Positions 6,825-63,200 are shown, counted from the first letter of the stretch. The stretch is DNA of 64,000 nt from an uncultured Gammaproteobacteria bacterium (GCA_964564035.1 CAZLZN010000001.1:14845-78844), one strand, 5' to 3'. Notes: a model not told the origin generated them from the sequence alone. Made by a program: numbers and translations.

Positions 6825-7505
6825 CTAGGGAATTTTATCAATGCTTCTAATCAACCTTTCATCATCTCTCCCCGGAACATTGACAGCCGTAGATACTCCG
6901 TAAGACACCATTTCCGCGTCAGGATATGGCGATAAAAGCGGAAGTAGTATGTCCGGCTCTGTAGTATCCGGGTTAAGCCACGCGTCCTCAGCGTCCCTCC
7001 GAAGTATCACGGGCATTCTGGGATGAACCTGGCCCACCACCCCGTTTGCCTGTGTGGTAATTATTGTGTAGCTTGTAACCTCGTGTCCGTCTTTCGGATT
7101 CACCCACACATCATATAGCCCCGCGAACGCGAACATCCCTTCATTTTTCAATCTGAAATAATACGGTTGACTCGGTTTCTGTTTTTTATCCCATTCATAA
7201 AAACCCGTAGCCGGCACCAGGCACCTCTGCATTCTGAACGGCTTTCTATATGCAGGTTTATTTTCAATCCCCTCGGCCCTTGCATTGATCGTCTTAAATT
7301 TGAAACTGTCATCCTTGGCCCATGCCGGAATAAGCCCCCAAAACATAAGACCGATCTGATTCGGACTATGCCTGGTGACAACCGGATTCATCTGACCCGG
7401 CGCGATATTATAACGCGGGGACAAATCTTTCAGAGTATTAATCGTTCCAAACCTATCCCGCAACTCCCTCGCTTCCTTTACTACAAGTCCATATCTGCCG
7501 CACAT
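6825..7505 (-). CDS. yedK: SOS-response-associated peptidase (SRAP/YedK/HMCES family); abasic-site DNA-protein crosslinking protein.
   Basis: The protein begins MCGRY... (catalytic Cys2). It carries RYNIAPGQ, FYEW and HPRMPVIL motifs typical of SRAP. It is divergent from lexA. Confidence 0.85.
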   Translation of the reverse strand: MCGRYGLVVKEARELRDRFGTINTLKDLSPRYNIAPGQMNPVVTRHSPNQIGLMFWGLIPAWAKDDSFKFKTINARAEGIENKPAYRKPFRMQRCLVPATGFYEWDKKQKPSQPYYFRLKNEGMFAFAGLYDVWVNPKDGHEVTSYTIITTQANGVVGQVHPRMPVILRRDAEDAWLNPDTTEPDILLPLLSPYPDAEMVSYGVSTAVNVPGRDDERLIRSIDKIP

Positions 7506-7577
7506 AGCAAGAGAATTTTAGATCTTATGTAAAAGAAATAGGTAATAATTTTGCTATACGCACACACCCAAGACACC

Positions 7578-7609
7578 CAAACCCGGTTCGTTTTATGTAG
7601 ACAAACAAG
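7578..7609 (+). repeat. REP-like element copy A (aaacccggttcgttttatgtagacaaacaagg).
   Basis: About 80% identical to the two REP copies flanking the RAYT gene at 10032-10064 and 10769-10800. It contains the GTTTnnnnnnnnnCAAAC hairpin core and sits in the SRAP/lexA divergent intergenic region. Confidence 0.7.
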
Positions 7610-7678
7610 GTGATTTTCAAATAAAGGGCTGATATTAAATTTTAAATATTAAAATTTGGTAATAAATTAAAAATCCCC

Positions 7679-7713
7679 TTGACAGGAAACGATCGTTTCC
7701 TATATATTATACT
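7679..7713 (+). promoter_or_regulatory. lexA promoter with embedded operator: -35 TTGACA (7679-7684), perfect 16-bp palindrome GGAAACGATCGTTTCC (7685-7700) filling the spacer, and a -10 TATATA/TATTAT (7701-7710).
   Basis: Read directly. The palindrome GAAAC-GATC-GTTTC resembles the Gram-positive Cheo/LexA box (GAAC-N4-GTTC). The ATG of lexA lies only about 5-10 nt past the -10, so the mRNA is likely leaderless. Confidence 0.6.
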
Positions 7714-7715
7714 CA

Positions 7716-8284
7716 TGACTATTGATGAAGCAGCCAAAAGAATAAAAAAATTTTATCTGCTCAACAGACGGATGCCGTCATACAAAGAGCTATGCATTGA
7801 GCTGGATCTCTCCTCCAAAAAAAACAGTTTCAAATGGGCAAAAAAACTTATAGAGACGGGCCTGCTTGGGAAAGACAAACAGGGTAAACTCTTTCCCAAG
7901 TCCCTGTTCGCGATTCCCGATTTCGGCATCATCAAGGCGGGATATGCTGCGCCGGCGCACCAGACAGAAAATAATAGCCTGGATTTATATAAATTTATAC
8001 TCGATCTTCCGAATGGAGTTTTCTCTTTAACTATACACGGAGACTCAATGATCGACGCGTCGATCCGGGAAGGAGACATCGCTCTTATTGATCCGAACAA
8101 ACAGCCTCTCCACGGAGATATCGTCGCCGCTTTGGTGGATGGCGAGTGTACTCTCAAATATTTTTACAAAGATCACCGGGGCGTACGCCTTGTACCCGGC
8201 AATCCCGAATATCCCATTATCTATCCGCAAAACGAACTCGTCGTACAGGGAGTATTAATCCATTTAATAAGGAAGTTCAGATGA
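7716..8284 (+). CDS. lexA: LexA repressor (wHTH plus S24 peptidase).
   Basis: Ala-Gly cleavage site (IIKAG-YAAP), GDSM catalytic Ser and a downstream Lys (TLKYF). The ATG at 7716 is preferred over the TTG at 7679, which would read through the promoter. Confidence 0.85.
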
Positions 8285-8412
8285 GGATATTATGTGCTTC
8301 TTTTTGAAATTTAAAAATATTAATTTAATATGTTAAATCAAAACTCAAAAACCATAGGAACAAGCGTCTTAACCATAAAAGGCAAAATGGATCTTTAAGC
8401 CTTGATCTAGGT

Positions 8413-8440
8413 TTTGATCTTTGAGATTTGATTTTTGATC
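8413..8440. repeat. Heptamer tandem repeat (TTTGATC)-like x4: TTTGATC TTTGAGA TTTGATT TTTGATC.
   Basis: Read directly; intergenic, upstream of the small-ORF/polymerase operon. The same unit recurs at 15042-15062. Confidence 0.65.
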
Positions 8441-8526
8441 TAATTTAGCTTGACACGCCTGTTCGTCATCTCGCTCATACTAAATGATGTAAATTAATTT
8501 TCTTAGATAAGCTCTGAAGGGGAGGT

Positions 8527-8787
8527 ATGTTAGAAAAAATACATGAAAAAATTGATGTCATTACTATTTACAAGAAATATCCGGCACGGGTCATTCCATA
8601 TAAAATCAGATGGAACGGTAGAGATCATATTATTACGAAAATCGGGTATCATCACAAAATTCGTAAAGGCCATACGTTCTTTCATATCTTTTCTGTCTGC
8701 TCCGATACCTTAGCGTTCCGCCTTCGCTTTGACACAGAAACTATGTACTGGACGCTGGAGGAAGTATCAGATGGATTTACCGATTAG
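8527..8787 (+). CDS. Small hypothetical protein (86 aa) immediately upstream of, and overlapping, the Y-family polymerase gene; possible accessory subunit.
   Basis: ORF with the purine-rich AAGGGGAGG just upstream of the ATG. The 3' end overlaps the polymerase start by 17 nt. No recognised family. Confidence 0.4.
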   Translation: MLEKIHEKIDVITIYKKYPARVIPYKIRWNGRDHIITKIGYHHKIRKGHTFFHIFSVCSDTLAFRLRFDTETMYWTLEEVSDGFTD

Positions 8788-10015
8788 CAAAAATAAACCC
8801 CAAATTATGCATATTGATCTCGATTCTTGCTTCGCAACAATCGAACAACAGGCAAATCCACTCCTCCGGGGGAAGCCCATCGTTGTCGCCGCACACAATG
8901 CTCCCAATGGATGCATTCTGGCATCGTCTATTGAGGCTAAAAGGATGGGAATAAAAACCGGAATGAGAATTAAAGAGTCGCGCTTAATCTATCCCTATAT
9001 AATAATCCGCACGCCTGACCCGGCAAAGTATCGTGACGTTCATGTCAAATTCAAAAAAATTTTTTCGGATTATTCAAACAAGGTTATTCCTAAGTCAATT
9101 GATGAAGCGATAATAGATCTACATGATATAGAACGACTTAACCTTGACTTGGTTAAAATCGGCCGGGAAATAAAACAGCGAATGAAGACGGAAATAGGAG
9201 AATGGATAAGCTGCAGTATAGGAATCTCTACAAATCGATTTCTCGCTAAGCTTGCCGCAACTATCCATAAGCCGGACGGCCTCGATGTTATAACACACAA
9301 AAATCTGGTTGATATCTACAGCAGGATAGAACTTCTGGACCTACACGGAATCAATGTGCGGTACCAGGCGAGACTCAACGCATACGGAATATTCACGCCG
9401 ATGGATTTCCTGCGGGCAGCCTGTGAAACTCTCGAAAAAAAAGTTTTCTTAAGCATCTGCGGCCGGCAGTGGTATGAAAGAATACGTGGATACGAGACTG
9501 ATGACATCGAATTCAAGACCAAAAGCATCGGTCAACAATACGCGCTAAAAAAGCCGACGGCAAATCCTGCGGAACTCGGCCCCATGATGATGAAACTATG
9601 TGAAAAAATGGGAAGAAGACTGCGTCACAAAGGCTATACCGCGCATGGCATCCACGTGAGAATTAATTATAAAGACGGGACGACTTGGCATAGAGGTCGC
9701 ATGACGAATAGTGAGCTGTACACTACAATGGAACTATATAAAGTGGCGCTTCTTATTTTTAACCAGCAACCGGAAATTAAGCAAGCCACACTTCTTGCAG
9801 TAAGCTGTTACAAGCTGGAAGCAAACGTAAAATCCCAAATGTCTTTATTTGACGCTGATCACACAAAACATAGAAAAATGTCTGATGCTATGGATGAGAT
9901 AAATGACCGCTGGGGAGAATTTACCGTAACACCAGGCCTAATGCTCGGGACAGAGAATATTATTCCTGACAGCATTGCCTTCGGTCGCGTTAAAGAACTT
10001 GAAAACTTAGAATAA
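8771..10015 (+). CDS. dinB: Y-family translesion DNA polymerase (DinB/Pol IV-like).
   Basis: MHIDLDSCFATIEQ... matches the Y-family N-terminal DxD motif, and SIDEAIIDL supplies the catalytic D/E. A strong SD (GGAGGAA) sits 7 nt before the ATG at 8771, with an alternative ATG at 8807. Confidence 0.85.
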   Translation: MDLPISKNKPQIMHIDLDSCFATIEQQANPLLRGKPIVVAAHNAPNGCILASSIEAKRMGIKTGMRIKESRLIYPYIIIRTPDPAKYRDVHVKFKKIFSDYSNKVIPKSIDEAIIDLHDIERLNLDLVKIGREIKQRMKTEIGEWISCSIGISTNRFLAKLAATIHKPDGLDVITHKNLVDIYSRIELLDLHGINVRYQARLNAYGIFTPMDFLRAACETLEKKVFLSICGRQWYERIRGYETDDIEFKTKSIGQQYALKKPTANPAELGPMMMKLCEKMGRRLRHKGYTAHGIHVRINYKDGTTWHRGRMTNSELYTTMELYKVALLIFNQQPEIKQATLLAVSCYKLEANVKSQMSLFDADHTKHRKMSDAMDEINDRWGEFTVTPGLMLGTENIIPDSIAFGRVKELENLE

Positions 10016-10031
10016 TTTTTCCACAAATGCA

Positions 10032-10064
10032 CGAACCTGGTTTGTTTTATATTGACAAACAAGG
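10032..10064 (+). repeat. REP-like element copy B (left flank of the RAYT).
   Basis: cgaacctggtttgttttatattgacaaacaagg; an inverted partner lies at 10769-10800. Confidence 0.7.
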
Positions 10065-10096
10065 ACAGAGTGCGTAATACTAAATTATCGCTTAGT

Positions 10097-10768
10097 ATGC
10101 CATATAGAAAAATTCCACTTGTAAAAAATGAAATTTATCATATCTTCAACCGAAGCATTGCAAGACAGCCTATTTTTAAAACACAAATAGATCACAAACG
10201 AATTCTTGAGATTATAAACTTTTATAGACATGATACCAGACCCCTACGATTTTCACATTTTAAAAGGTTACCAATTGACCAAAAAAAAGATATCTTAGAG
10301 GAATATGCAAAGAATCAAAAATATCTCGTAGAAATATATGCATACTGCGTAATGCCAAATCATTTCCACTTCTTATTAAAAGCAACTCAAGACTCCGGAA
10401 TTTCAATTTTCATGAGAAACCTGCAACATAGTTATTCTAATTATTTTAATATAAAAAACAACAGGACAGGATCATTATTTCAGTCCATGTTTAAAGCAAT
10501 CAGAATAGAAACTGACGAGCAGCTTTTCCATGTTTCAAGATATATTCATTTAAATCCGGCAACTTCATTTATCATACCTATTGAAGCTCTTGAAACATAT
10601 CAATGGTCTTCATTTAAAGATTTTATAAACAAAGCAACTGAAAGCATGATCAATAAGCAGTATATTTATGAGAATTTTAAAAGCGTAGGAGAATACAAAA
10701 AGTTTGTGTATGATCAAGCTGATTATCAGCGCGAGTTAGATAAAATAAAGCACCTTATCTTCAAATAA
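10097..10768 (+). CDS. REP-associated tyrosine transposase (RAYT; IS200/IS605-like HUH Y1 transposase).
   Basis: HUH motif YCVMPNHFHFLL and catalytic Tyr motif RYIHLNP. Flanked by inverted REP copies, one of which abuts the stop codon. The ATG at 10097 is preferred over the TTG at 10052, which lies inside REP B. Confidence 0.75.
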   Translation: MPYRKIPLVKNEIYHIFNRSIARQPIFKTQIDHKRILEIINFYRHDTRPLRFSHFKRLPIDQKKDILEEYAKNQKYLVEIYAYCVMPNHFHFLLKATQDSGISIFMRNLQHSYSNYFNIKNNRTGSLFQSMFKAIRIETDEQLFHVSRYIHLNPATSFIIPIEALETYQWSSFKDFINKATESMINKQYIYENFKSVGEYKKFVYDQADYQRELDKIKHLIFK

Positions 10769-12427: not shown

Positions 12428-12439
12428 CATTTATGTTTG

Positions 12440-12474
12440 ATTGAAAATTGAAAATTGAAAATTTCAAATTGAAA
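12440..12474. repeat. Heptamer tandem repeat (ATTGAAA)x3, followed by ATTTCAA and ATTGAAA.
   Basis: Read directly, in the dnaK-dnaJ spacer, ending 1 nt before the dnaK stop. Confidence 0.75.
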
Positions 12475-12475
12475 A

Positions 12476-14398
12476 CTATTCTACCACTTCTCCCTCAACC
12501 GGCTCATCTTTGTCTTTTTTCTTTTTATCTTCTTTTTTCTCGCCCTCAGCATTCTCAGCCTGACCCTCGGCGCCTTGATCCTGAGCCTGATCTCCGGTTG
12601 CGCCGGCTGCACTGTACATGCTCTGACCAATCTTTTGCAGATGATCCGAAAGTTCCTGAGTTTTTGCCTTAATATCTTCTTTGGAACCGCTATCGAGTAT
12701 ATCTTTTAGCGCCTTTACCTTTTCCTCAACTTCTTTCCTCAGATCCTCGCTGATCTTGTCTTTATCTTCACGTAATGCCTTCTCTGCTGTAAATATCAAA
12801 GCATCTGCCTGATTCCTGACTTCAACTTTTTCTTTCTTTTCTTCATCTTCTTTCGCGTGCAATTCAGCCTCTTTGGTCATTTTCTCAACTTCTTCTTTCG
12901 ATAAACCTGTCGATCCGGTTATTTTGATGCTTTGCGCTTTGCCTGTTGCCTTATCTTTCGCGGTAACATTCAGAAGTCCGTTCGCGTCAATATCAAAAGT
13001 AACCTCAATCTGCGGTACGCCTCTCGGCGCCGGCGGAATTCCGTCCAAAATAAATCTCCCCAGTGATTTATTATCGTTCGCCATCGGCCGCTCTCCCTGT
13101 AAAATATTTATTTCTACCTGCGTCTGATTATCGCCTGCTGTAGAAAATACCTGCGATTTTGAAGTAGGAATAGTTGTATTTCTTGTAATAAGCGGCGTAG
13201 ATACTGCCCCCATCGTCTCAATACCCAGAGTCAGTGGCGTAACGTCAAGAAGCAATACGTCCTTAACTTCTCCGCCGAGAACTCCGGCCTGCACGGCCGC
13301 GCCGACTGCGACTACTTCATCCGGATTGACCGATCTATTGGCTTCTTTCCCGAAAAACCGCGTTACAACCTCAACCACTTTAGGCATCCTCGTCATACCT
13401 CCGACCAAAATTACTTCGTTTATATCTTTCTCAGTCATTCCGGCATCTTTTAGAGCCTTCTTGACCGGCTCAAGCGTTTTTTCAACTAATTCACCGACAA
13501 CCATCTCAAGCTTTGATCGTGTCAAAGTCATTGTCAGATGCAGCGGTCCGTCTTTGCCTTGAGTTATAAACGGCTGATTTATTTGCGCTTCCTGACTGCT
13601 GGACAGCTCTATCTTTGCCTTCTCCGCCGACTCTTTCAGCCTCTGAAGGGCTTGCGAATCTTTGCGTAGATCAATACTGTTTTCTTTCTGGAACTCCTCG
13701 GCTATATATTCTATTATTTTCTGATCAAAATCGTCTCCACCGAGATGCGTATCGCCATTCGTGGATTTGACGTGGTATACGCCTTCTCCAAGCTCAAGAA
13801 TTGAGATATCAAAGGTTCCGCCTCCCAAATCATAAACCGCAATCGTGTGTGTATTTTTCTTATCGAGCCCGTATGCCAAAGCTGCAGCTGTCGGTTCATT
13901 AATAATACGAAGTACCTCAAGTCCGGCTATCTCACCGGCCTGTTTGGTAGCCTGTCTCTGACTGTCATCAAAATACGCCGGAACCGTAATGACCGCCTGT
14001 GTTACTTTACTTCCCAAATACGCTTCGGCATCTGCCTTAATTTTCTGAAGAATCATCGCGGAAACTTCCTGCGGAGTAAATGTTTTACCCTCAACCTCAA
14101 CGACTGCCATATCATCACGACCTGCCTTGACTGTATATGGAAGCCATTTTGTATCAAACTGGACAGACTTATCATGGAACTTCTTTCCCATGAGTCTCTT
14201 AATTGAAAAGATTGTCCTCTTTGGCTTAAGCACCATTTGCCTCTTCGCGACGTCTCCGACCACGTGCGAGATTGGATCGACTACAGACGGTATAACATTG
14301 CGTCCTTCTGCGGAATGGATCACTTTTGGCGATCCGCCCTCCATTACAGCGACACACGAATTTGTTGTTCCTAAATCAATTCCTATTATTTTTCCCAT
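12476..14398 (-). CDS. dnaK: Chaperone DnaK (Hsp70).
   Basis: [18 protein letters not shown]..., DLGGGTFD and the full Hsp70 architecture. Confidence 0.95.
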
Positions 14399-36711: not shown

Positions 36712-36753
36712 GTGGTAAAATTTTATGTACTCTCTGTTCCATTATTATACTCT

Positions 36754-38640
36754 ATGAAAGATATATTACTCAAGGAATTAAACCCCATGCAAAAAGAAGC
36801 AGTTACCCACACTGATGGCCCGACCATTATCCTGGCAGGTGCGGGAAGCGGCAAGACACGAGTTCTTACCTATAAAATCGCGTATTTACTCCTCGAAAAA
36901 AATATCCCCGCGGAATCAATTCTCGCAGTCACATTCACCAATAAAGCCGCGAACGAAATGAAAGAACGAATAAAAAAAACTATTCATTCATTTCCTGAAT
37001 ACAAAAAATATATTGGCAACCCGTGGATTTCGACTTTTCATTCGCTCTGCGCCAAAATACTGCGCCTGAACGGTCAATACATCGGATACTCTCCTAAATT
37101 CGCGATATACGACAGCCACGATCAGCTGGAAGTTGTAAAAACCGCCATGAATAAATTATTCATTTCTGTCAGAGACTTCAAACCTGCCTCCATTCATGCA
37201 GTTATTTCTCAAATAAAAAATGAACTTATCACGCCTGAAGAATATCCTTCTTTTGCTAGGGGCTATTTCCAGGAAGCTGTCGCCAAAATATATCCTCTAT
37301 ACCAGAAAATTCTGAAAGAAAGCGACGCACTCGATTTTGACGACTTGATCATGCAAACCATAAAGCTCTTCAAAGAAAACGAAGCTGTCTTAAACAAATA
37401 TCAAACTATGTTTCAATATATTCTGATCGACGAATACCAGGACACAAACAGAGCGCAGTACTTGCTGACTCGTCTTTTAAGCGCCAAATATCAAAATATA
37501 TGCGTTGTCGGTGATTTTAGCCAAAGCATATACAGTTGGCGAGGCGCTGATTACCGCAATCTGATCAAATTCAAAGATGATTTTAAAAATACCCGCACTT
37601 TCACACTTGAACAAAATTATAGATCCACCCAAACAATACTTGATTGTGCCTCGGCTGTCGTTTCCAAAAATACATCTCACCCCGTTCTCAAGCTTTGGAC
37701 CGAGAATCCCGGAGGAGAAGAAATTGAAATTTATGAAGCCGACAACGAAGAAGATGAAGCGCTTTTTATAATACGCAAAATAATTGAATTAAACATCAAA
37801 AATCTGCACGAAGTCGCTGTTCTTTACCGCACAAATGCTCAGTCACGCGTCTTGGAAGAAGCACTTCTGCATCATTCCGTTCCCTACGTACTAGTAGGCG
37901 GTACGCGCTTTTATGAACGCCGTGAAATCAAAGATATACTTGCCTATCTCCGCCTTATAGAAAATCCCAAAGACGTGATATCATACCGCCGCGCGGAAAA
38001 ACTCGGCAAAGGAAGGCTCGCTAAATTCCTGGAATTTCAATCAGCCGTCACACCTCAGTTAATAAATGCTCAGGGCGCGAACGAAATCCAAAAACAACAG
38101 GAAAAACCGAAAACAATCGATATCCTGGATGGCGTACTTAGAGCTACAAAATATTTGGATCTTTACGACGAAAAAATAGAAGAAGACAGGATGCGCCTCG
38201 AAAATATCAAAGAGCTCAGATCTGTCGCGATCAGGTTTCCGGATCTTACTGATTTTCTGGAAAACGTCGCTCTTGTCGAGCAGGAATATTCTTCAAATCG
38301 GACAAAATCGGATCAGGACCCCAAATCGGACTATGACAAAAAAAACGCTATTACACTGATGACTCTTCACGCCGCCAAAGGACTCGAGTTTCCATATGTA
38401 TTCATGATCGGTATGGAAGAAGGATTGTTTCCGCACAGCAGAAGCATCAATGACCGCCTGGAGATGGAAGAGGAAAGAAGACTCTGCTATGTCGGTATGA
38501 CCCGGGCCAAGGATAAGCTTTTTCTGACACATGCCAGACGGAGATTATTTTTCGGAAGCAGAACCATGAACACCATCTCCCGATTCATCTTCGACCTCCC
38601 GGAAGATCTAATAATCAAAAAAGAAGCCTTTGACTTCTAA
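36754..38640 (+). CDS. pcrA: UvrD/PcrA-type ATP-dependent DNA helicase.
   Basis: Walker A AGAGSGKT plus helicase motifs. The C-terminus ...RFIFDLPEDLIIKKEAFDF is duplicated downstream. Alternative start at 36712. Confidence 0.9.
   Translation: MKDILLKELNPMQKEAVTHTDGPTIILAGAGSGKTRVLTYKIAYLLLEKNIPAESILAVTFTNKAANEMKERIKKTIHSFPEYKKYIGNPWISTFHSLCAKILRLNGQYIGYSPKFAIYDSHDQLEVVKTAMNKLFISVRDFKPASIHAVISQIKNELITPEEYPSFARGYFQEAVAKIYPLYQKILKESDALDFDDLIMQTIKLFKENEAVLNKYQTMFQYILIDEYQDTNRAQYLLTRLLSAKYQNICVVGDFSQSIYSWRGADYRNLIKFKDDFKNTRTFTLEQNYRSTQTILDCASAVVSKNTSHPVLKLWTENPGGEEIEIYEADNEEDEALFIIRKIIELNIKNLHEVAVLYRTNAQSRVLEEALLHHSVPYVLVGGTRFYERREIKDILAYLRLIENPKDVISYRRAEKLGKGRLAKFLEFQSAVTPQLINAQGANEIQKQQEKPKTIDILDGVLRATKYLDLYDEKIEEDRMRLENIKELRSVAIRFPDLTDFLENVALVEQEYSSNRTKSDQDPKSDYDKKNAITLMTLHAAKGLEFPYVFMIGMEEGLFPHSRSINDRLEMEEERRLCYVGMTRAKDKLFLTHARRRLFFGSRTMNTISRFIFDLPEDLIIKKEAFDF
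38570..38640 (+). repeat. Direct repeat copy 1 (intact 3' end of uvrD/pcrA, about 70 bp).
   Basis: acaccatctcccgattcatcttcgacctcccggaagatctaataatcaaaaaagaagcctttgacttctaa. It is near-identical to 40509-40580, which carries a 2-nt CG insertion and a TAG in place of the TAA. Confidence 0.85.
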
Positions 38641-40433
38641 ATCTTCTCAAATATCACTAACTCTACGCCTCCAAGCGGATTATTAATAAAGGTACTTTTT
38701 AATTTGATATTCCTCAATTCGTCTTGAGAATATTTGCCTACAGCAAGCCCTTCAATTAAGCCTTGACTTTTATCTGTAACACTTACCGCAACAGCATCGT
38801 TTTTTTTAATTGCCGCAACCAAGTCGCTATCTTCATTTAGCCTAAATGCTGTTACCCTTTTCCTATATCCGGTAAGATAATTTATAAATCCGTCCTCCAA
38901 TGAATCCGATATGCCGATAGACTTATTGTCAGTACTGCTTAAATACTTTCCCGCAGAAATAGTTTTGCCGTGATTAAACTTATAGTTATACAAGTAAAAA
39001 TTCGGCTGAATATCTCTCTGATTAAAATACAAATGCCAATTCCAGAAACAAACCACTATAACAGGTATCACCAGAAGAGTAACCATTTCGGTTTTTAGTT
39101 TCATCTCCCATCTGCAATACGCCCAATGCATTGCGGCTGTTGCAGCAAATAGTATCAAAAGAATGAACCCGGACACCCTTAGCGCATTAGGATGACCTAA
39201 TCCATAATAATGGAAATCCGGAATTACCTCCGAGGAGAATATGTCGCTAACAATCGGCGGAATAAAAAGTATCGCCATTAGCAAAAATATTTTGCGCTTA
39301 TAAAAAAAGAGATAAATAAAACCGAAAATCGCAGTTATCATAGTAATGATATCAAAAACAGGAGCCGCGGCGGGATTCTTTCCTGGATTGGGGTCTCCGC
39401 TCGCGGGAGGAGCATCGGGATCAGGGTTAGGTAACTGAAAAAAAGTATACACAACAGTCCTGCTGAAATTTCCCCAAATTTCCTTTCTAAATTCCTCTGC
39501 TGTATAATTTCGGTTAAAAATCGAGATCTCGTTTGTTCTGCCCCAGAATCCGGCCGGATCCAAAATCCAGCTTGTTATCAAAGGCATTATTGATATCAAA
39601 AATACCGTAACAAAAAAAACAGCGCTTCTGATAAATTTCTCTCGATTTGAATAAAAAATGAATAACATAGTAAATAAAAAAATTACAACGGCAAAAGGTC
39701 TGAAATTCAAATAGGTATATAATCCTCCTCCCAAAGACAACGCAATTCCAGCCAAATTATAAATATTTTTATTCTTGATATATAAAAATATAAAGAGCAA
39801 GGTTAGAATCTGAAAAAATAGAGATGGAATAGGCTCATAAGCTAATCTTGACAGAACTATATGCGTATATTGGAATATCATCATGCTTGCTCCGAGCACT
39901 GCGATTACGGGATTAAAAAATAGCCTTAAAAATATATAGAATACGGCAACCGAAAATGCACCGAACAATATGCTGGGAAACCTTATTGCTGTTAAAGTAT
40001 TACCAATAATATTGATGCTATGAGCTGTCATATACATAAGCGGTGTCGGATGAAAATAATAATGAGGATATGTACCGTCATAAGGTATCCACTCCGGATA
40101 TTTCAATAAATCCAGGCTGAATACTGCTACAGTCAACTCATCCCCATACATCCCGGGCGTAATTTCTTCAACCTGAAACATCCTGATCATAAAAGCAAGT
40201 GTAAATAATAAAAATATTATTAATAACTCTTTATATTTTGACTTTATAATCCTGAGTAAATGCAGTTTTTGAAATATCATTAACCACAGCAAGGCTACAG
40301 TAGTAATATGCAGGGACATAATAAGAGGCGGGTATTTTCTAAATGTGACAAAATACGCAAAAATTATTAAATTTATGGAAATAAATGCAATTATAATATT
40401 CTGCAGTCTGATAAATTTTTCTAAAAAAAACAT
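38637..40433 (-). CDS. GT-C fold membrane glycosyltransferase (PMT/ArnT-like), located between the 70-bp direct repeats.
   Basis: 598 aa, polytopic; GMYGDELTVAV... (DE motif region). The stop codon overlaps the uvrD stop. Confidence 0.6.
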   Translation of the reverse strand: MFFLEKFIRLQNIIIAFISINLIIFAYFVTFRKYPPLIMSLHITTVALLWLMIFQKLHLLRIIKSKYKELLIIFLLFTLAFMIRMFQVEEITPGMYGDELTVAVFSLDLLKYPEWIPYDGTYPHYYFHPTPLMYMTAHSINIIGNTLTAIRFPSILFGAFSVAVFYIFLRLFFNPVIAVLGASMMIFQYTHIVLSRLAYEPIPSLFFQILTLLFIFLYIKNKNIYNLAGIALSLGGGLYTYLNFRPFAVVIFLFTMLFIFYSNREKFIRSAVFFVTVFLISIMPLITSWILDPAGFWGRTNEISIFNRNYTAEEFRKEIWGNFSRTVVYTFFQLPNPDPDAPPASGDPNPGKNPAAAPVFDIITMITAIFGFIYLFFYKRKIFLLMAILFIPPIVSDIFSSEVIPDFHYYGLGHPNALRVSGFILLILFAATAAMHWAYCRWEMKLKTEMVTLLVIPVIVVCFWNWHLYFNQRDIQPNFYLYNYKFNHGKTISAGKYLSSTDNKSIGISDSLEDGFINYLTGYRKRVTAFRLNEDSDLVAAIKKNDAVAVSVTDKSQGLIEGLAVGKYSQDELRNIKLKSTFINNPLGGVELVIFEKI

Positions 40434-40508
40434 ATCTCCAAAATACTTACCAATTTATCATTTCATAATTAGACATGCAGTTCAATATCATAAAAAGAAT
40501 CTACATAT

Positions 40509-40580
40509 ACACCATCTCCCGATTCATCTTCGACCTCCCGCGGAAGATCTAATAATCAAAAAAGAAGCCTTTGACTTCTA
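40509..40580 (+). repeat. Direct repeat copy 2 (degenerate duplicate of the uvrD 3' end).
   Basis: See 38570-38640. The frame is broken by the CG insertion. It is followed by a GC-richer non-coding relic (40582-40640) that reads HPEPYTDLDQIARSFHYEP* in the same frame. Confidence 0.85.
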
Positions 40581-40811
40581 GCATCCTGAGCCCTACACCG
40601 ACCTCGACCAAATCGCCCGGTCCTTCCACTACGAACCATAATTCAACACCTCAATCCCCCATCTCGCAAACTTGCGCTATTCAGGCTATAATAATCATCA
40701 GTGATAAATGTATATACCAATTAACAGAGACCTAACTTTGCAAAAAAACACGATACATTTCACACCTGAATCAATAATGCTAATAATTAAAACTTGAAAT
40801 AAAATCAAAAT

Positions 40812-41948
40812 ATGGAAATACGCGAAATTGCTGAGAAAGAAAAAATTGAATTTAACAGAGTCGTCACTCACCCTCTCCAATCCTACGAATGGGGCGAGTT
40901 TCGGCAGGCAACAGGTATCAAAGTAATACGCCGCGGCTTTTATAAAAATAATAAACTTATCAAAGCTTTTACTCTCACAATTCACAAAATCCCCCATACT
41001 CCGTCTACAATCGGCTATTTCCCCAAAGGCGATTTACCCGATACGGATGTAATTCACGAATTAATTAAGATAGGAAAAACGGAAAAATGCATCTTCATCC
41101 AACTCGAACCAAATATCATTAAAAAAAACGTGTCAAAAACTAATATTGTAAATTATGAAAATGAAAATTTAAATTTCATTGAAAATTGTAAATTGAAAAT
41201 TGAAAATTTAACAATTACACCTGCTGCCCATCCCCTCTTTACCAAATATACTTTTGTTCTGGATCTTACAAAAACAGAAGAAGAACTCCTCAAAAATATG
41301 CATTCCAAGGCGCGCTACAACATCAAAGTTGCCAAAAAACACGGCGTCGAGGTTACTGAGAATAACTCAGATAAAGCATTTGAAAACTACCTGAAGCTAA
41401 TGAGTGAAACAACCGCACGCCAAAAATTTTACGCACATACCGAAAATTATCACCGAGTTTTATGGAAAACTTTAAAATGTCATCCCGAATTTATTTCGGG
41501 ATCTTCTAATGACAAGATGCTGAAACAAGTTCAGCATGACAAAACTGGCAAGGAAACCAATAAATTAACAACCCATCTTCTCACTGCCAAATATCAAGAC
41601 AAGATATTAACCGCCTGGATGCTATTTGTTTTTAAAGATTCGCTATATTATCCATATGGCGCCTCAAGCAGTGAAAACCGTGAAGTAATGTCAAGCAGTC
41701 TGATGATGTGGGAAGCAATCAGATTCGGCAAAAAATTAGGACTTAAAAAATTCGACATGTGGGGCGCGCTCGGCCCTGATCCCGACCCCAAAGATCCCTG
41801 GTTTGGCTTTCACAATTTTAAACAAAAATACAGCCCGGACCATGTCGAATTTATCGGAAGCTATGATCTGATCATAAATCCGGCTTTATATCAACTTTAC
41901 AAATTAACCGATAAACTGAGATGGATATATCTAAAATTTAGAAAATAA
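40812..41948 (+). CDS. FemAB-family peptidoglycan aminoacyltransferase (Lipid II / tRNA-dependent cross-bridge formation), by inference.
   Basis: HPLQSYEWGEF..., KARYNIKVAKKHGV and a C-terminal coiled region typical of FemAB/FemX. It carries an in-frame AT-rich heptamer insertion at 41179-41206. Confidence 0.6.
   Translation: MEIREIAEKEKIEFNRVVTHPLQSYEWGEFRQATGIKVIRRGFYKNNKLIKAFTLTIHKIPHTPSTIGYFPKGDLPDTDVIHELIKIGKTEKCIFIQLEPNIIKKNVSKTNIVNYENENLNFIENCKLKIENLTITPAAHPLFTKYTFVLDLTKTEEELLKNMHSKARYNIKVAKKHGVEVTENNSDKAFENYLKLMSETTARQKFYAHTENYHRVLWKTLKCHPEFISGSSNDKMLKQVQHDKTGKETNKLTTHLLTAKYQDKILTAWMLFVFKDSLYYPYGASSSENREVMSSSLMMWEAIRFGKKLGLKKFDMWGALGPDPDPKDPWFGFHNFKQKYSPDHVEFIGSYDLIINPALYQLYKLTDKLRWIYLKFRK
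41179..41206. repeat. Intragenic heptamer tandem array (ATTGAAA ATTGTAA ATTGAAA ATTGAAA) inside the FemAB-like gene; it encodes ...IENCKLKIENL....
   Basis: Read directly. This is the same unit as the intergenic arrays at 2942 and 12440. Confidence 0.75.
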
Positions 41949-51752: not shown

Positions 51753-52763
51753 CTACAGCTTCCTGATCTCCTCCTCCACGAAACCATCCAACTCGCCGCC
51801 CAAAACACCCTCCGTATCTGACGACTCAAATCCCGTCCTCAGATCCTTGACCATTCTGTACGGATGCAAAACATATGACCTGATCTGATTTCCCCAGCCC
51901 GGAGTTTTATATGCACCCTTCAGCTTCGCTTCCTGTTTTCGTCTCTCTTCCTCCTGCAGGAGCCAAAGCTTAGCGCTAAGCAGCTTCATAGCAAACTCCC
52001 TGTTCTGCGCCTGAAATCTCTGCGTCTGTGCAGTTACCACGATGCCTGTCGGCATATGCTTGAGCCTTACCGCGGTCGACACCTTATTCACATTCTGCCC
52101 CCCATGTCCGCCGCTTCTAAACGCCTCAAATTCAATATCATCCTCCTTTATCACAACCCCTGTACTCTGATCAATATCAGGCAGTACCTCAACCAAAGCA
52201 AAAGACGTTTGTCTCAGGCTATCGGCGTTGTAAGGCGACAGCCTCACAAGCCGGTGTACTCCTGCCTCATGCTTCAAATGCCCATACGCATAATTCCCCT
52301 TTATCTCAATAACTATGCTCTTGAGCCCTGCCTCGTCTCCCGGCGTTTGCTCGACAATTTCATACTTCCAGCCTTTTCTCTCACAATACCTCGTATACAT
52401 CCGAAAAAGCATCTCCGCCCAGTCCATGGCCTCGGTCCCACCCTGACCGGAATGAATTGACAATATAACCCCGTCCTTGTCGTGGACAGACGAAAAATAA
52501 AGCAGTGTCTCAAGCTTCTTAAGCAGACTCTCCGCCTCCTTATACTCCCCCTCATCGATCCACAACTGCAAAAGCTCTATCTCCTCAACTTCTTTTTGGA
52601 GATCAGACATCTCTTTCATCTTGCGCGCGGCTGTCTGGTGATCCTGCCAGAAATTAACATGCATACTCTCCGCCTCAAGCTCGCGGATCTTTTTACGCTT
52701 GCCGTCAGCATCAACAACCTCAATCAGCTTACGGCATCGGTCTACCAAAACATCTTTTTCCAT
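51753..52763 (-). CDS. prfB: Peptide chain release factor 2, with no programmed frameshift.
   Basis: SPY (SPF-type) and GGQ motifs. A TATAAT-like -10 sits directly upstream of the ATG; no in-frame CUU-UGA site was seen. Confidence 0.85.
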
Positions 52764-56411: not shown

Positions 56412-56918
56412 ATGGATCAGCAGACAGCTCAAAATAAAAAACTCGTTATCGGTTGGTTCTCGTTTACCTGCTGTGAAGACAGTACAATTCTCCTCACCGA
56501 ACTCCTCAATGACAATTTACTCGAATGGAAAAAACTGGTCGAGTTTAGACACCTCAAAGCACTCAAAACAAAAAACTCAATGGAAGGACTTGATGTCGCT
56601 TTTATCGAAGGCGCGGTTTCATCAGATTCCCAGGCGGAAGAGGTCAAAAAAATCAGAAACAATGCCAAATATGTAGTCGCGATCGGCTCCTGTGCCTGCA
56701 CAGGGATGCCCTCAGCGTCCAGAAACGCCTTTGTCAGCGAGCAAATAAACGACAAAATCAAATGGTATATGAGCCAGTTCAGCTATAGCGACAAAGTCCG
56801 CAAGCTCGAAGAGGTCATAACTGTCGACGACAAAGTCCAGGGCTGCCCCATGAGCGCATCATCTTTTATCGAAACTTTGACGAAATACTTAAAGCAATTT
56901 AATATAATAGCGGTTTAA
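56412..56918 (+). CDS. [NiFe]-hydrogenase small subunit, proximal-cluster-only, group-3-like.
   Basis: FTCCEDS, GSCACTG and QGCP cysteine motifs; 168 aa. Confidence 0.75.
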   Translation: MDQQTAQNKKLVIGWFSFTCCEDSTILLTELLNDNLLEWKKLVEFRHLKALKTKNSMEGLDVAFIEGAVSSDSQAEEVKKIRNNAKYVVAIGSCACTGMPSASRNAFVSEQINDKIKWYMSQFSYSDKVRKLEEVITVDDKVQGCPMSASSFIETLTKYLKQFNIIAV

Positions 56919-56941
56919 CAAAAATAAAAAAACCTTTATAC

Positions 56942-56955
56942 TTAATACTTAATAC
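56942..56955. repeat. Heptamer tandem repeat (TTAATAC)x2, just upstream of the hydrogenase large-subunit start.
   Basis: Read directly; the same unit as at 11418-11438. Confidence 0.65.
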
Positions 56956-56960
56956 AAATT

Positions 56961-58265
56961 ATGCACAGCGCCGATATAACAATCGAAAATATAACCAAAA
57001 TAGAAGGTAACGCCAGCTTGAAAGTAACGATCGAAAACGATTCTGTAAAACAACTTCAGTTTATAATCTCGGACTACCGCCGCTTCTACACAACAGCAGT
57101 CAAAGGCAAACCATTCATGACAGTCCCTTCATTCCTGTCCAGAATCTGCGGCACCTGCTCGGTAGCGCATTTATTTGCCTCAATAAAAGCTATAGAGCGG
57201 TCTCAGGGCATCGAAGTCTCCGAACAGACCAAGCTTCTCCGCGCCTTAGCGTATGACGGCCTTATGATCCGCGATCATGCACTGCATTTATACTTCTTCG
57301 TTTTACCCGATATTCTCGGAATTGATTCAATCCTCGACATTCCGGACGATGACAACAATCCCGGCCATATTCTTCTTCACGATTCCTTTGACATAAAACG
57401 CCTTGGCACAGATATCACAAACGTGATTATAGGAGCCGCGATCCACGCGCCCTTCCCGACGATCGGAGGATTCCTCAAAAACCCCGATCCATCCAAATTC
57501 CCCGAACTGATCCAAAGACTTGAAGCCATCCGGCCGCAGGTACTTCGCGGCATTAAAACCTTCTATGACTGGAACGCGTCATTGATTCGCAATTCCAACT
57601 ACTTAGGGCTTCGCAGTGAAAAAAAATTCGACTTTCTGGAAGGCGACGTATTCAATTCCAACGGCAGACTTATCGCGCAAAATGATTTCAAGAATTATCT
57701 CAGGTACGTCCAAATTCCCTATTCACAAGCTGAGGGTTATGAATTCTCCGACACACAAAAAGACTACCTTGCCGGCTCATTAGCGAGAATAAACCTCAAT
57801 AAAGACCTCCTTCACGAACGTACCAAAAAAGATGCAGCCGAGTATATCGCGGCTTTCCCCTCTAACAATATCTATCACAATAATCTCGCACAGGCAATAG
57901 AAATACTTCACTGCGTAGATGAAGCAATAGATATCTTGAAAACGATCCAAATATCACCCGATGAAAAACCCGTTCGCAAACCTCCTCAGGCAGGCGTTGG
58001 CGTCGGACTTGTCGAAGCTCCAAGAGGCATACTATATCATATGGCCAAAGTAAACGACAAAGGACTGATCGAAGACTACGACGTGATCGTACCTACAGCC
58101 CAAAACCAAATTCAAATAGAAAACGATCTCAAAGAATATTTCAACAGAAATTTAAATAAACCGGAAGAAGAACTCAGACTGGATGCTGAGAAAATTATCA
58201 GAGCCTACGACCCCTGCATGTCCTGCGCCACCAATTTCCTCAAAATCGACTGGATACGCAAATAA
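56961..58265 (+). CDS. [NiFe]-hydrogenase large subunit (group 3 type).
   Basis: L1 RICGTCSVAH and L2 DPCMSCATN motifs; 434 aa. Confidence 0.85.
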   Translation: MHSADITIENITKIEGNASLKVTIENDSVKQLQFIISDYRRFYTTAVKGKPFMTVPSFLSRICGTCSVAHLFASIKAIERSQGIEVSEQTKLLRALAYDGLMIRDHALHLYFFVLPDILGIDSILDIPDDDNNPGHILLHDSFDIKRLGTDITNVIIGAAIHAPFPTIGGFLKNPDPSKFPELIQRLEAIRPQVLRGIKTFYDWNASLIRNSNYLGLRSEKKFDFLEGDVFNSNGRLIAQNDFKNYLRYVQIPYSQAEGYEFSDTQKDYLAGSLARINLNKDLLHERTKKDAAEYIAAFPSNNIYHNNLAQAIEILHCVDEAIDILKTIQISPDEKPVRKPPQAGVGVGLVEAPRGILYHMAKVNDKGLIEDYDVIVPTAQNQIQIENDLKEYFNRNLNKPEEELRLDAEKIIRAYDPCMSCATNFLKIDWIRK

Positions 58266-61049: not shown

Positions 61050-61140
61050 TTCCCAACTATTTCTCTTTAAGTATACAGAACATACATCTACAAAATCAAT
61101 ACAGCTATTGACATAAATTTTTATTTAATATAAAGTTATT

Positions 61141-61286
61141 ACTAATCAAGAGTGATGGGGAGAGAATTGGCTCAACGATCCATCCGGCAACCCCGCTAAG
61201 CGGGGTGCCAAACCCAAACCCGTGAGGGAAGGATTAGCTCCGATTATTTCGGGGAAACATCTTACCCCGCTCGGCGGGGTTTTTTT
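61141..61286 (+). promoter_or_regulatory. SAM-I (S-box) riboswitch with an intrinsic terminator.
   Basis: cTAATCAAGAG...GGGGAGAG...GGCAACC...GGTGCCAAACCC...GGATTAG matches SAM-I conserved blocks (AUCAAGAG, GGCAACC, GGUGCUAAAUCC, P1 closure). A terminator CCCCGC-tcg-GCGGGG plus U7 ends 1 nt before the metF ATG. A TTGACA -35 lies at 61108. Confidence 0.8.
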
Positions 61287-62240
61287 ATGGACAAATCAAA
61301 TTCATTATCTTTTAAAATAAGAAACAAGCGCCCATGCGTCTTGTTTGAACTGGTTCCTCCGCCGGCAGAATACAAAAAAAACATAATCAATGAGTCTCTC
61401 GCGTCTCTCACCCAAATTTTGACCCGCACATCAGTCGACGGCATAAATATTCCGGAAGTAATTGATGAACATCGAAACGGTGAGAGGGTGAATAAAATTC
61501 CCGACAAGCTCGAGCCTCGAATATTAGCAAAGTATCTGCACGGCCTGGGCTTAGACAATATAATAATTAACCGGCCCGTAGTTTATTCCCCCTGGGATCT
61601 TCAAATGAAATGGCTCAAAGAAACATATTCCAAATTCAAAATTAAAAACTTTGTTCTGGTAGGCGGCGAATCATCCGGCACCGAATATCCCGGATATTCG
61701 GTAAACAAAACAGCGCTGGAAATTTCCGTGTCCCAAAAAGATCTCTTTCCTGACATTCTTCTTGGCGGCATTACGATACCGGGTAGAAAAAATGAAGCTG
61801 ACAGATTATATAAAAAAACACAAAACGGAATTAACTTTTTCACGACGCAAATAATTTATGATTCAAGATCCATAACAAAACTGCTCGCCGCTTACTGGAA
61901 AATATGCATTGCAAAAAAAGAAAAACCCAAAATGATATTTCTCAGCTTCGCGCCTGTAATCACAAAAAAAGACATTGAGCTTCTGCTATGGTTGGGAGTT
62001 AAAATTCCGCAATCCACTTTGAAACAGCTGAAAAATGGCTGGCTCGGCGTCGGACACAGATCAACCAAAATCTGCATAGATATTCTAAAAGATATCTTTT
62101 CGTTTATAAAAAAATATGATATAAGTATACCTGTCGGCCTGAATATAGGTTATGTCAACAGAAATAACTTTGAATTTTCACTTGAATTTCTGGATAAATT
62201 AAGTCAGGTCTATCTGAAAGAAATAAAAAATAATAAATAA
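61287..62240 (+). CDS. metF: Methylenetetrahydrofolate reductase-like protein.
   Basis: MTHFR-family pattern (VLFELVPPP...). It is under a SAM riboswitch and upstream of metE. Confidence 0.65.
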   Translation: MDKSNSLSFKIRNKRPCVLFELVPPPAEYKKNIINESLASLTQILTRTSVDGINIPEVIDEHRNGERVNKIPDKLEPRILAKYLHGLGLDNIIINRPVVYSPWDLQMKWLKETYSKFKIKNFVLVGGESSGTEYPGYSVNKTALEISVSQKDLFPDILLGGITIPGRKNEADRLYKKTQNGINFFTTQIIYDSRSITKLLAAYWKICIAKKEKPKMIFLSFAPVITKKDIELLLWLGVKIPQSTLKQLKNGWLGVGHRSTKICIDILKDIFSFIKKYDISIPVGLNIGYVNRNNFEFSLEFLDKLSQVYLKEIKNNK

Positions 62241-62243
62241 AAT

Positions 62244-63200
62244 ATGGCAACCGTAAAAACATACATACATGGCATTTACCCGCGCTCAAATGACCTGATC
62301 CAGACTAGCAGAGAACTGATCCGCAAAAAGAAAAAAGAATCGGATTATCTGTCTCAGCTAAAAAAAGATTTTTTAAATTTGCAGCAAATTCAAAAATCTA
62401 ATAATTTCGATTACATAGAAGACGGAAAATTGAATTGGCACGACATATTCCGGCCTATCGTCGAATCAGCTTCAGGTTTCAAAATCGGCGCGCTGACCAG
62501 ATGGTTTGACAACAATTGTTTTTTCAGGCAACCCGTCGCGGCAGGCAAATTAAAACTCGACAAAAATAAACTGGATAAATTATTTCCAAGAATTACGCCT
62601 GAAAAAAAATGGAAAGTTACGCTTCCTTCCCCTTTTACTTTCGCGCGCCTAACCCTGAACGAAACTGGTACTTCATTTGAAAATCTGCTTGATCAAATTA
62701 CTGAAATAATCTCGGAAATTATCAGCTACCTTGATAAAAAAGGGGTAAATTTTGTACAGCTGAATGAACCCTTCCTGCCCTATCAAGGTGTGAGCAATCA
62801 GGATATTACTTTATTCAACAAAATGATCAAAAAACTTGAATCAAAAAAAGGCAAACTCGCAATCGCTTTGCATCTATACTTTGGTGATGCCGGACCTGTT
62901 TTAAAAAAACTCGACAAAAATAAATTCATAGATATCATCGGGATAGATTTTTACAAAACAGCCCTCACCTCTATCCCCAAAAATTTTGACTATGCACTGG
63001 CCGCGGGCATAGTCGACGGCAGGAACTCACTTATCGAAGACCAAAAAACGCTGAAAAAATTTATAAACGACGCGGTAGAGCACCTCAAGCTCGAGGAGAT
63101 TTATATTACAAACAACTCCGACTTGGACTTGTTGCCCGAAACGATAGCATCCAAAAAAATTGAAATACTCTCAGGTATAAAAAACTTATACAATAAATAA
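62244..63200 (+). CDS. MetE N-terminal-like (non-catalytic UroD/MetE-fold) domain protein.
   Basis: Degenerate MetE-like blocks (VQLNEPFLPY compared with IQIDEPA). Adjacent to the catalytic metE domain gene. Confidence 0.45.
   Translation: MATVKTYIHGIYPRSNDLIQTSRELIRKKKKESDYLSQLKKDFLNLQQIQKSNNFDYIEDGKLNWHDIFRPIVESASGFKIGALTRWFDNNCFFRQPVAAGKLKLDKNKLDKLFPRITPEKKWKVTLPSPFTFARLTLNETGTSFENLLDQITEIISEIISYLDKKGVNFVQLNEPFLPYQGVSNQDITLFNKMIKKLESKKGKLAIALHLYFGDAGPVLKKLDKNKFIDIIGIDFYKTALTSIPKNFDYALAAGIVDGRNSLIEDQKTLKKFINDAVEHLKLEEIYITNNSDLDLLPETIASKKIEILSGIKNLYNK

Follow-up and report, generated by a model that had tools for sequence, protein, structure and literature searches.

Several described processes leave direct repeats on both sides of newly acquired bacterial DNA. 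Transposons typically produce target-site duplications of 2-15 bp, and integrase-mediated islands, integrative and conjugative elements (ICEs) and integrase-less cis-mobilizable elements (CIMEs) occupy the 3′ ends of protein genes, as the ICESt1/ICESt3 family does in the 3′ end of fda. Bacteria of the Candidate Phyla Radiation (CPR, Patescibacteria) have small genomes with few recognisable mobile elements and highly variable envelope glycosylation genes, and to our knowledge gene gain in them is poorly documented. In Escherichia coli, single crossovers of circular molecules with partial homology gave target duplications of 109-950 bp (Amarir-Bouhram et al. 2011, PMC3240628). For the displaced gene 3′ ends of arrays of type VI secretion systems (T6SS) and Rhs proteins, an anchored form of illegitimate recombination has been put forward (Kirchberger et al. 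2017, PMC5361080). Here, we analyzed the junction between the helicase gene uvrD (pcrA) and the peptidoglycan-bridge transferase gene femAB in a 64,000-nt stretch of DNA deposited under the name of an uncultured Gammaproteobacteria bacterium (GCA_964564035.1, CAZLZN010000001.1:14845-78844; the whole stretch is hereafter the window). At this junction, a direct duplication of the last 70 nt of uvrD encloses a single gene for a membrane glycosyltransferase of the GT-C fold (the GT-C gene). The segment was gained between uvrD and femAB before the window strain separated from a sister strain. A recombinase-independent, homology-driven insertion-duplication is the explanation that we rank first, and we consider it moderately probable.

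Repeated uvrD ends around a glycosyltransferase gene

The final 70 nt of uvrD, which take in the first two bases (TA) of the TAA stop codon, recur on the far side of the GT-C gene (Table 1). The two copies match exactly over 32 nt at the start and 40 nt at the end, two blocks that overlap by 2 nt in copy 1, so that every base of copy 1 is matched. Their sole difference is a CG (38600-38601) that is doubled to CGCG in copy 2 (40539-40542), which brings the latter to 72 nt. Both copies end in TTCTA, followed by an A in copy 1, giving TAA, and by a G in copy 2, giving TAG. To the left of the repeat the homology is weak and covers 5 nt, with CATGA at copy 1 and CATAT at copy 2. When copy 2 is read in frame past the CG slip, it yields EDLIIKKEAFDF, a stop, HPEPYTDLDQIARSFHYEP and another stop. 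A 25-nt core pattern, allowed up to three mismatches, was found at only these two sites in the 64 kb and in none of 100 shuffles, and the window holds no second long direct repeat of high identity. The duplication with its coordinates, the 2-nt insertion, the TAG in place of TAA, and the single minus-strand GT-C gene whose stop overlaps that of uvrD had all been noticed in an earlier sequence-only reading of the window, and our analysis reproduced each of them.

The reading frame of uvrD is open from a GTG at 36712; we set the start at M26 (36787), as gene callers do for the closest homologues. The protein ends in LIIKKEAFDF, and all 60 closest homologues examined end at the same point. Exact look-ups of the window UvrD with three start codons in the public protein collection returned nothing, and its best homologue is 91% identical. 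The adjacent GT-C and FemAB proteins, unlike this UvrD, are both on record (NCBI and Logan). The missing record is possibly caused by contigs that break inside the repeat and truncate uvrD.

We compared the locus with Logan contigs, which are assemblies from other public sequencing runs and were retrieved through exact-protein look-ups. One contig (L005, SRR27422829) runs from within the GT-C gene, in the part encoding the N-terminus, through copy 2 with its CGCG and into femAB, and another (L001, SRR32942133) is identical to the window from 38570 to 40538. The femAB contigs of four runs (L002, L003, L004 and L006) start at 40551, leaving exactly 30 nt up to the G at 40581, the first base specific to the femAB side; a k=31 assembly graph is expected to break at this point if the repeat is real. 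No independent contig spanned the join between the body of uvrD and copy 1. The strain of the window is represented in runs SRR32942133, SRR27422829, SRR32841056, SRR17331997, SRR31850043 and SRR34334330. A duplication created by assembly, or a chimera of two strains that exists in no real genome, might be suspected in a metagenome-type assembly with a repeat longer than common k-mer sizes. However, the right junction with its CGCG and the interior of the insert are found in independent contigs, the contigs of the four runs break precisely where a real repeat predicts, and both junctions are present in a diverged strain described below. We therefore regard an assembly artefact as extremely improbable, because the GT-C-side junctions are confirmed by independent public contigs. 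The ends of L001 are an identical 30 nt (a k-1 overlap), which gives the contig a circular look with a period of 1,939 nt, and the same contig was reported in two samples. At k=31 this shape is expected of any repeat-flanked segment; an excised circle or a tandem array can also produce it.

The GT-C gene is the only open reading frame (ORF) between the repeat copies. Its PMT_2 match scores 38 bits against a gathering cut-off of 26.1, a hydropathy scan of the protein gave about a dozen hydrophobic segments, and the acidic residues D98 and E99 are invariant in 19 of 19 aligned sequences. The gene converges on uvrD, whose stop lies at 38638-40, with an overlap of 4 nt; its own TAG stop is the complement of 38637-38639 and is hence supplied by copy 1. 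Aligned with 18 homologues the gene is of full length, and its VIFEKI end is a conserved C-terminal motif at which several homologues stop. Its ratio of nonsynonymous to synonymous divergence (dN/dS) against the 85%-identical orthologue of the sister strain is 0.135; the cargo gene is therefore functional and under purifying selection. The GC content and codon bias of the cargo, which the sequence-only reading had proposed as a check, showed no anomaly: no signal of foreign composition was detected, with GC at third codon positions (GC3) at 0.354, where the window averages 0.415 (sd 0.059), and a use of synonymous codons typical of the window. A simple scan of the minus strand found no strong consensus promoter in the region upstream of the gene.

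No GT-C paralogue was found in the 64-kb window, and a local paralogue as the source was rejected. Beyond the sister strain, the nearest homologues of the GT-C protein are about 50% identical and lie on Microgenomates-type contigs in unrelated contexts. None of the eight homologue loci examined (L011 and L092-L098, 45-51% identity) has uvrD beside the GT-C homologue; a metagenome scan for such contexts yielded only three loci. Separately, a 45%-identical homologue (P0125, L096:318-1220) adjoins a Replic_Relax (replication-relaxation) gene on a short contig, a hint that plasmid-like elements carry part of this GT-C family.

Table 1. Features of the uvrD-femAB junction, in window coordinates
Feature	Position	Strand	Remarks
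uvrD/pcrA helicase gene	36787..38640	+	Pfam UvrD-helicase E = 4.9e-91, UvrD_C; NCBIfam pcrA 720 bits
Repeat copy 1	38570..38639	+	Coding end of uvrD with TA of the stop; Logan contig L001 begins exactly at 38570
GT-C-fold (PMT_2/ArnT-like) membrane glycosyltransferase gene	38637..40433	-	598 aa; Pfam PMT_2 E = 2.4e-9
GT-C upstream region	40434..40508	-	75 nt, would have arrived with the cargo; presumed promoter and 5′ untranslated region; collinear and closely aligned with L010
Repeat copy 2	40509..40580	+	Non-functional copy of the uvrD 3′ end; CGCG seen in independent contig L005
C-rich spacer	40581..40649		69 nt, 55% GC, 42% C
femAB upstream region	40650..40811	+	TATAAT-like box; conserved; about 77% of aligned positions identical to L099 from 40650 to the femAB start
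femAB-family peptidoglycan-bridge transferase gene	40812..41948	+	Pfam FemAB E = 7.9e-40; usual downstream neighbour of uvrD

Empty sites, a sister strain and the upkeep of the repeat

The nearest named relatives of the UvrD, FemAB and GT-C proteins belong to Candidatus Levybacteria/Levyibacteriota and Roizmanbacteria (Microgenomates, CPR), and the host lineage is probably Levybacteria-like, as judged from these proteins. In the window, genes for an LCP-family protein and a triosephosphate isomerase (both on the minus strand) are followed by uvrD, the GT-C gene (minus strand), femAB and genes for a methyltransferase, a signal peptidase and a nickel superoxide dismutase (SodN). Apart from the GT-C gene, this order is conserved among relatives. 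An empty site, which the sequence-only reading had proposed to look for in related genomes, was found in four of them (L009, L012, L013 and L014), where femAB follows uvrD after 3 to about 60 nt. UvrD of L009 (an 894-kb contig) is 75% identical to that of the window, and those of L012-L014 (Levybacteria-type species representatives) are 59-65% identical.

The closest relative found (L007) has a UvrD that is 91% identical in protein and flanks of about 80% DNA identity. Its slot between uvrD and femAB holds an unrelated 186-aa ORF without a Pfam match (L007:11938-12498) and no duplication. Further afield, the slot of a Gottesmanbacteria contig holds a 153-aa ORF (L015:7832-8293) and that of a Curtissbacteria contig a 190-aa ORF and a 258-aa membrane ORF (L016:7875-9147), in both cases without a duplicated uvrD end. 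Because the slot elsewhere holds unrelated small genes without duplication, the junction tolerates insertions by more than one route, and it appears to be a hot spot where insertions recur. Among the 84 uvrD loci scanned, the final 100 nt of the gene occurred a second time in the window only (0 of the 83 others, close and distant Microgenomates included); the duplication is peculiar to the lineage of the window.

A diverged strain within this lineage carries the same insertion. On a contig from run ERR12350060 (L010), which encodes a GT-C orthologue 85% identical in protein, the left end is formed by the final 26 nt of uvrD (IKKEAFDF and the stop) abutting the GT-C stop as in the window. The right end, upstream of the GT-C gene, holds a second copy of the uvrD end, in frame, reading ISRFIFDLPEHLIIKK. 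The left boundary of this copy, on the right-hand side of the insert, includes about 23 extra nt relative to the window. The femAB gene from the same run (L099) is 83-84% identical to that of the window at the nucleotide level compared with 77% for L007; therefore, the two GT-C-bearing strains are sisters and L007 is an outgroup. Since the sister strain shares both the insertion and the second uvrD end, the event predates the split of the two strains.

An arrangement shared by two strains that are about 15% apart at the nucleotide level could also be ancient. The order uvrD-GT-C-femAB might be ancestral, with the GT-C gene lost elsewhere, or it might derive from a trimmed tandem duplication of the uvrD end and the GT-C gene. 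However, uvrD and femAB are adjacent in relatives whose UvrD is 59-75% identical, the nearest outgroup has no GT-C gene, and the dead uvrD end sits exactly where the live end sits in relatives. A tandem duplication would additionally require a second deletion ending precisely at the repeat boundary. We regard an ancient origin as very improbable. The finding that the sequence-only reading had named as fatal to an insertion, namely the same duplication in distant relatives that have no empty site, was not made: the duplication is shared with one close sister strain only.

The two repeat copies are far more alike than their age would suggest. Synonymous divergence (dS) between the window strain and the L010/L099 strain is 0.57 for the GT-C gene and 0.93 for femAB, and by our own estimate from these values a free-running 70-nt relic would be expected to differ at roughly 15 sites or more. 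In the window, copies 1 and 2 differ by no substitution, the CG slip aside. Copy 2 of the sister strain differs from the uvrD end of the window by five synonymous codon changes and one non-synonymous change, with the frame kept. If about one quarter of random changes are synonymous, the probability of at least five synonymous changes in six is about 0.005 by our arithmetic, and such a pattern would be expected only for a copy recently derived from a functional gene. Because the window copies have no substitutions and the changes in the sister strain are mostly synonymous, these data suggest that gene conversion continues to carry the live uvrD sequence onto the dead copy, or that the duplication has been created anew several times.

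Functions of the repeat itself were also considered. A conserved micro-ORF over copy 2 was rejected: the sister strain has an in-frame ATG upstream of its own copy 2, but the window copy is shifted into another frame by the CG slip. A minus-strand terminator hairpin within the repeat was rejected as well, since the fold was not above shuffles (z = -1.3 and -0.2) and was weaker in the sister strain. A search for known RNA families near the insert gave a single sub-threshold match, within the helicase coding region.

Copy 2 is followed by a C-rich segment, with a C content that just 0.26% of all 69-nt windows in the 64 kb reach. The sequence-only reading had described this segment as a GC-richer relic that can be read on from copy 2. 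The stretch is indeed readable in frame after copy 2, and the twenty open codons are no evidence of coding. A lost tail of uvrD (HPEPY and following residues) was rejected: because the 60 closest homologues end at EAFDF, as the window protein does, TAA or TAG is the native stop and the HPEPY reading is no displaced tail. The segment is absent from the sister-strain contig, whose homology to the window begins at 40650, and a conserved femAB leader was rejected on the same ground, since conservation with the sister strain starts only there. Its similarity to the region upstream of femAB in L007 is marginal, 27 of 500 shuffles reaching the observed alignment score. The C-rich segment may be a scrap from an earlier occupant of the slot.

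Downstream of it, a promoter-like site lies at 40759-40787, upstream of femAB. An AT-rich motif of the type ATTGAAAATTGAAAATT occurs repeatedly, in intergenic regions and within femAB (41168-41229, 2932-2965 and 12430-12477). At its site in femAB, the FemAB protein of the window (378 aa) holds extra residues, NENLNFIENCKLKIENL, relative to that of L009 (345 aa), and a similar extra stretch occurs in L007.

Routes by which the segment may have entered

We propose that a 1.87-kb DNA, consisting of the GT-C gene and about 75 nt of its own upstream sequence, would have entered an ancestral uvrD-femAB junction in a homology-dependent event without a dedicated recombinase. By one route, a circularised fragment carrying a uvrD 3′ end beside the GT-C gene would have integrated through a single Campbell-type crossover. 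By the other, a linear fragment would have been anchored in uvrD and joined illegitimately 70 nt upstream of the uvrD stop, as in homology-facilitated illegitimate recombination. Either route would leave uvrD intact, with its last 70 nt on each side of the cargo and the dead copy beside femAB. The insertion would have preceded the divergence of the window strain from the L010/L099 strain; afterwards, gene conversion would have restored the dead copy time and again from the live uvrD end, and the CG slip would have arisen later, in the window lineage. Features of a Campbell-type event are present at the locus: a contiguous chromosomal segment is duplicated around the insert, and uvrD is reconstituted, ending where its homologues end.

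Several points weigh against this proposal. Both homology routes need a donor in which the GT-C gene abuts a uvrD end, and no such donor was found among the eight homologue loci examined. A homology of 70 nt is short for an efficient RecA-dependent crossover. The original junctions have probably been rewritten, with gene conversion having erased their details, and microhomology at the junctions is not readable with confidence because the right-hand boundary differs by about 23 nt between the strains. Lastly, the recombinase search spanned the 64-kb window, and a trans-acting integrase may reside elsewhere in the genome.

The main competitor is site-specific integration, in which the GT-C gene would be what is left of an integrative element, or a CIME-like element, that targets the uvrD 3′ end. 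The two copies would be attachment sites (attL and attR), and the integrase would have been lost or would act in trans. This was also how the sequence-only reading had interpreted the repeats. The insertion into the uvrD-femAB junction has held up, given the empty sites, and so has the statement that no integrase is visible: Pfam scans of 49 ORFs of at least 140 aa across the 64 kb detected no integrase, serine recombinase or DDE transposase. Direct repeats that contain the 3′ end of a protein gene, the intactness of that gene and the empty sites in relatives all agree with site-specific integration, and an excised circle would give the same shape as the circular-looking contig L001 (1,969 nt with a 30-nt terminal overlap). 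However, a k=31 assembly yields that shape for any repeat-flanked segment, the cargo is a single gene, and no positive sign of site-specific integration was obtained. A second 3′ end is absent from all 83 other uvrD loci, the locus has no viral or plasmid-type neighbours, and the right boundary differs between the two insertion-bearing strains, unlike a fixed attachment site. We rank site-specific integration second and judge it unlikely.

The two ends of the insert do not form an inverted-repeat pair. No viral contig matched the GT-C family or the repeat core, and a phage origin was rejected; the core pattern was absent from the viral and the species-representative genome collections. The sole recombinase-like match in the window lies 28 kb away. 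It is a 238-aa REP-associated tyrosine transposase-like gene (10052-10768; Pfam Y1_Tnp; NCBIfam REP_Tyr_transpos, below cut-off) with the lowest GC of the window (0.30), and a similar Y1_Tnp gene occurs in a syntenic block of contig L008.

An origin in replication or repair, without prior homology, ranks third and is improbable in our estimation. In one version, a template switch like those of microhomology-mediated break-induced replication (MMBIR) or fork stalling and template switching (FoSTeS) would have departed at the uvrD stop, used a different molecule as template for the GT-C segment and come back at a point 70 nt upstream. In the other, a fragment would have been ligated into a break with 70-nt staggered ends, which were then filled in. 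The layout is predicted exactly, as the duplication would be bounded by the points of departure and return. No GT-C-uvrD donor is required, in keeping with the failure to find one, and a short CAT match is present at the right junction. Conversely, this junction microhomology is minimal and not trustworthy after gene conversion, and the window holds no source copy of the GT-C gene. We know of no documented natural bacterial case of insertion plus duplication by a template switch or staggered break, although no search was made for one.

A more mobile version of the homology-driven event can also be envisaged. The GT-C gene and one 70-nt copy might form a recombinase-free cassette that cycles between the chromosome and a 1.94-kb circle through RecA-type recombination and re-enters at the uvrD 3′ end in other cells. 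Three observations hint at this without being decisive: the circular-looking contig was seen in two samples, dS is lower for the GT-C gene than for femAB, and the repeats are homogenised in both lineages. We consider such cycling doubtful, at a level below the replication and repair origin. If it were true, the conserved end of a core gene would serve as a portable homology arm, by which a surface-glycosylation gene could spread among competent CPR strains.

Meaning of the locus and comparison with described systems

The gene gain at this junction, for which we favour a homology-driven insertion-duplication, is genuine but rather commonplace. It is an instance, in a little-studied phylum, of a type of event already described, and it reveals no new kind of element. 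The value of the locus lies in its being a clean and dated gain of a single surface-modifying gene at a conserved core-gene junction for which an empty site, a sister and an outgroup are known. Its footprint, a 70-nt gene-end duplication kept identical by what appears to be gene conversion, points to recombination with DNA that was taken up rather than to an integrase. Because different small genes occupy the slot in other lineages, the uvrD-femAB slot could be a marker locus for strain-level variation of the envelope.

Elsewhere in the window, we observed an S-adenosylmethionine (SAM) riboswitch (61140-61239; RF00162, 55 bits, above the gathering score) upstream of genes resembling those for methylenetetrahydrofolate reductase (MTHFR) and cobalamin-independent methionine synthase (61287-63200). 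An SOS-type cluster at 6825-10015 comprises an SRAP peptidase, a LexA-like S24 peptidase and a Y-family (ImpB/MucB) polymerase. Genes resembling those for the small and large subunits of NiFe-hydrogenase lie at 56412-58265, a 764-aa protein with a Baseplate_J-like domain is encoded at 579-2873, and GC3 is unusually high, at 0.585, in a release-factor gene (51753-52763).

Among described systems, transposon insertions likewise are flanked by a direct duplication of their target. However, the 70-nt duplication at the uvrD-femAB junction is far longer than a target-site duplication, the insert lacks terminal inverted repeats, and neither the insert nor its immediate surroundings contain a transposase. 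Integrase-mediated islands, ICEs and CIMEs are closer in that they too lie between direct repeats with a gene 3′ end, the gene in question still works and relatives have empty sites. In contrast to those elements, the locus has no integrase, excisionase or transfer gene, its cargo is one gene, the site is unused in the 83 other uvrD loci, and the right boundary is variable.

Homology-facilitated illegitimate recombination and the "C-terminal displacement" of Rhs and T6SS arrays (de Vries and Wackernagel 2002; Prudhomme et al. 2002; Jackson et al. 2009; Kirchberger et al. 2017, PMC5361080) resemble the locus in that anchoring is on one side only, by a conserved upstream gene behind which the new DNA stands, and the old 3′ end is displaced downstream as an orphan. 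The classic outcome of homology-facilitated illegitimate recombination is a deletion or replacement, whereas here a clean 70-nt duplication resulted. Compared with the Rhs and T6SS arrays, the remnant here is kept identical to the live copy, and the locus is no polymorphic-toxin array.

Finally, the experimental cases of Campbell-type insertion-duplication (PMC3240628) differ from the present locus, which records a natural event in a CPR genome with 70 nt of homology, no plasmid backbone, a cargo of one gene with its upstream region, and a circular donor that is hypothetical. What the two have in common is the direct duplication of an exactly shared segment, a target gene that remains intact and no need for a dedicated recombinase.

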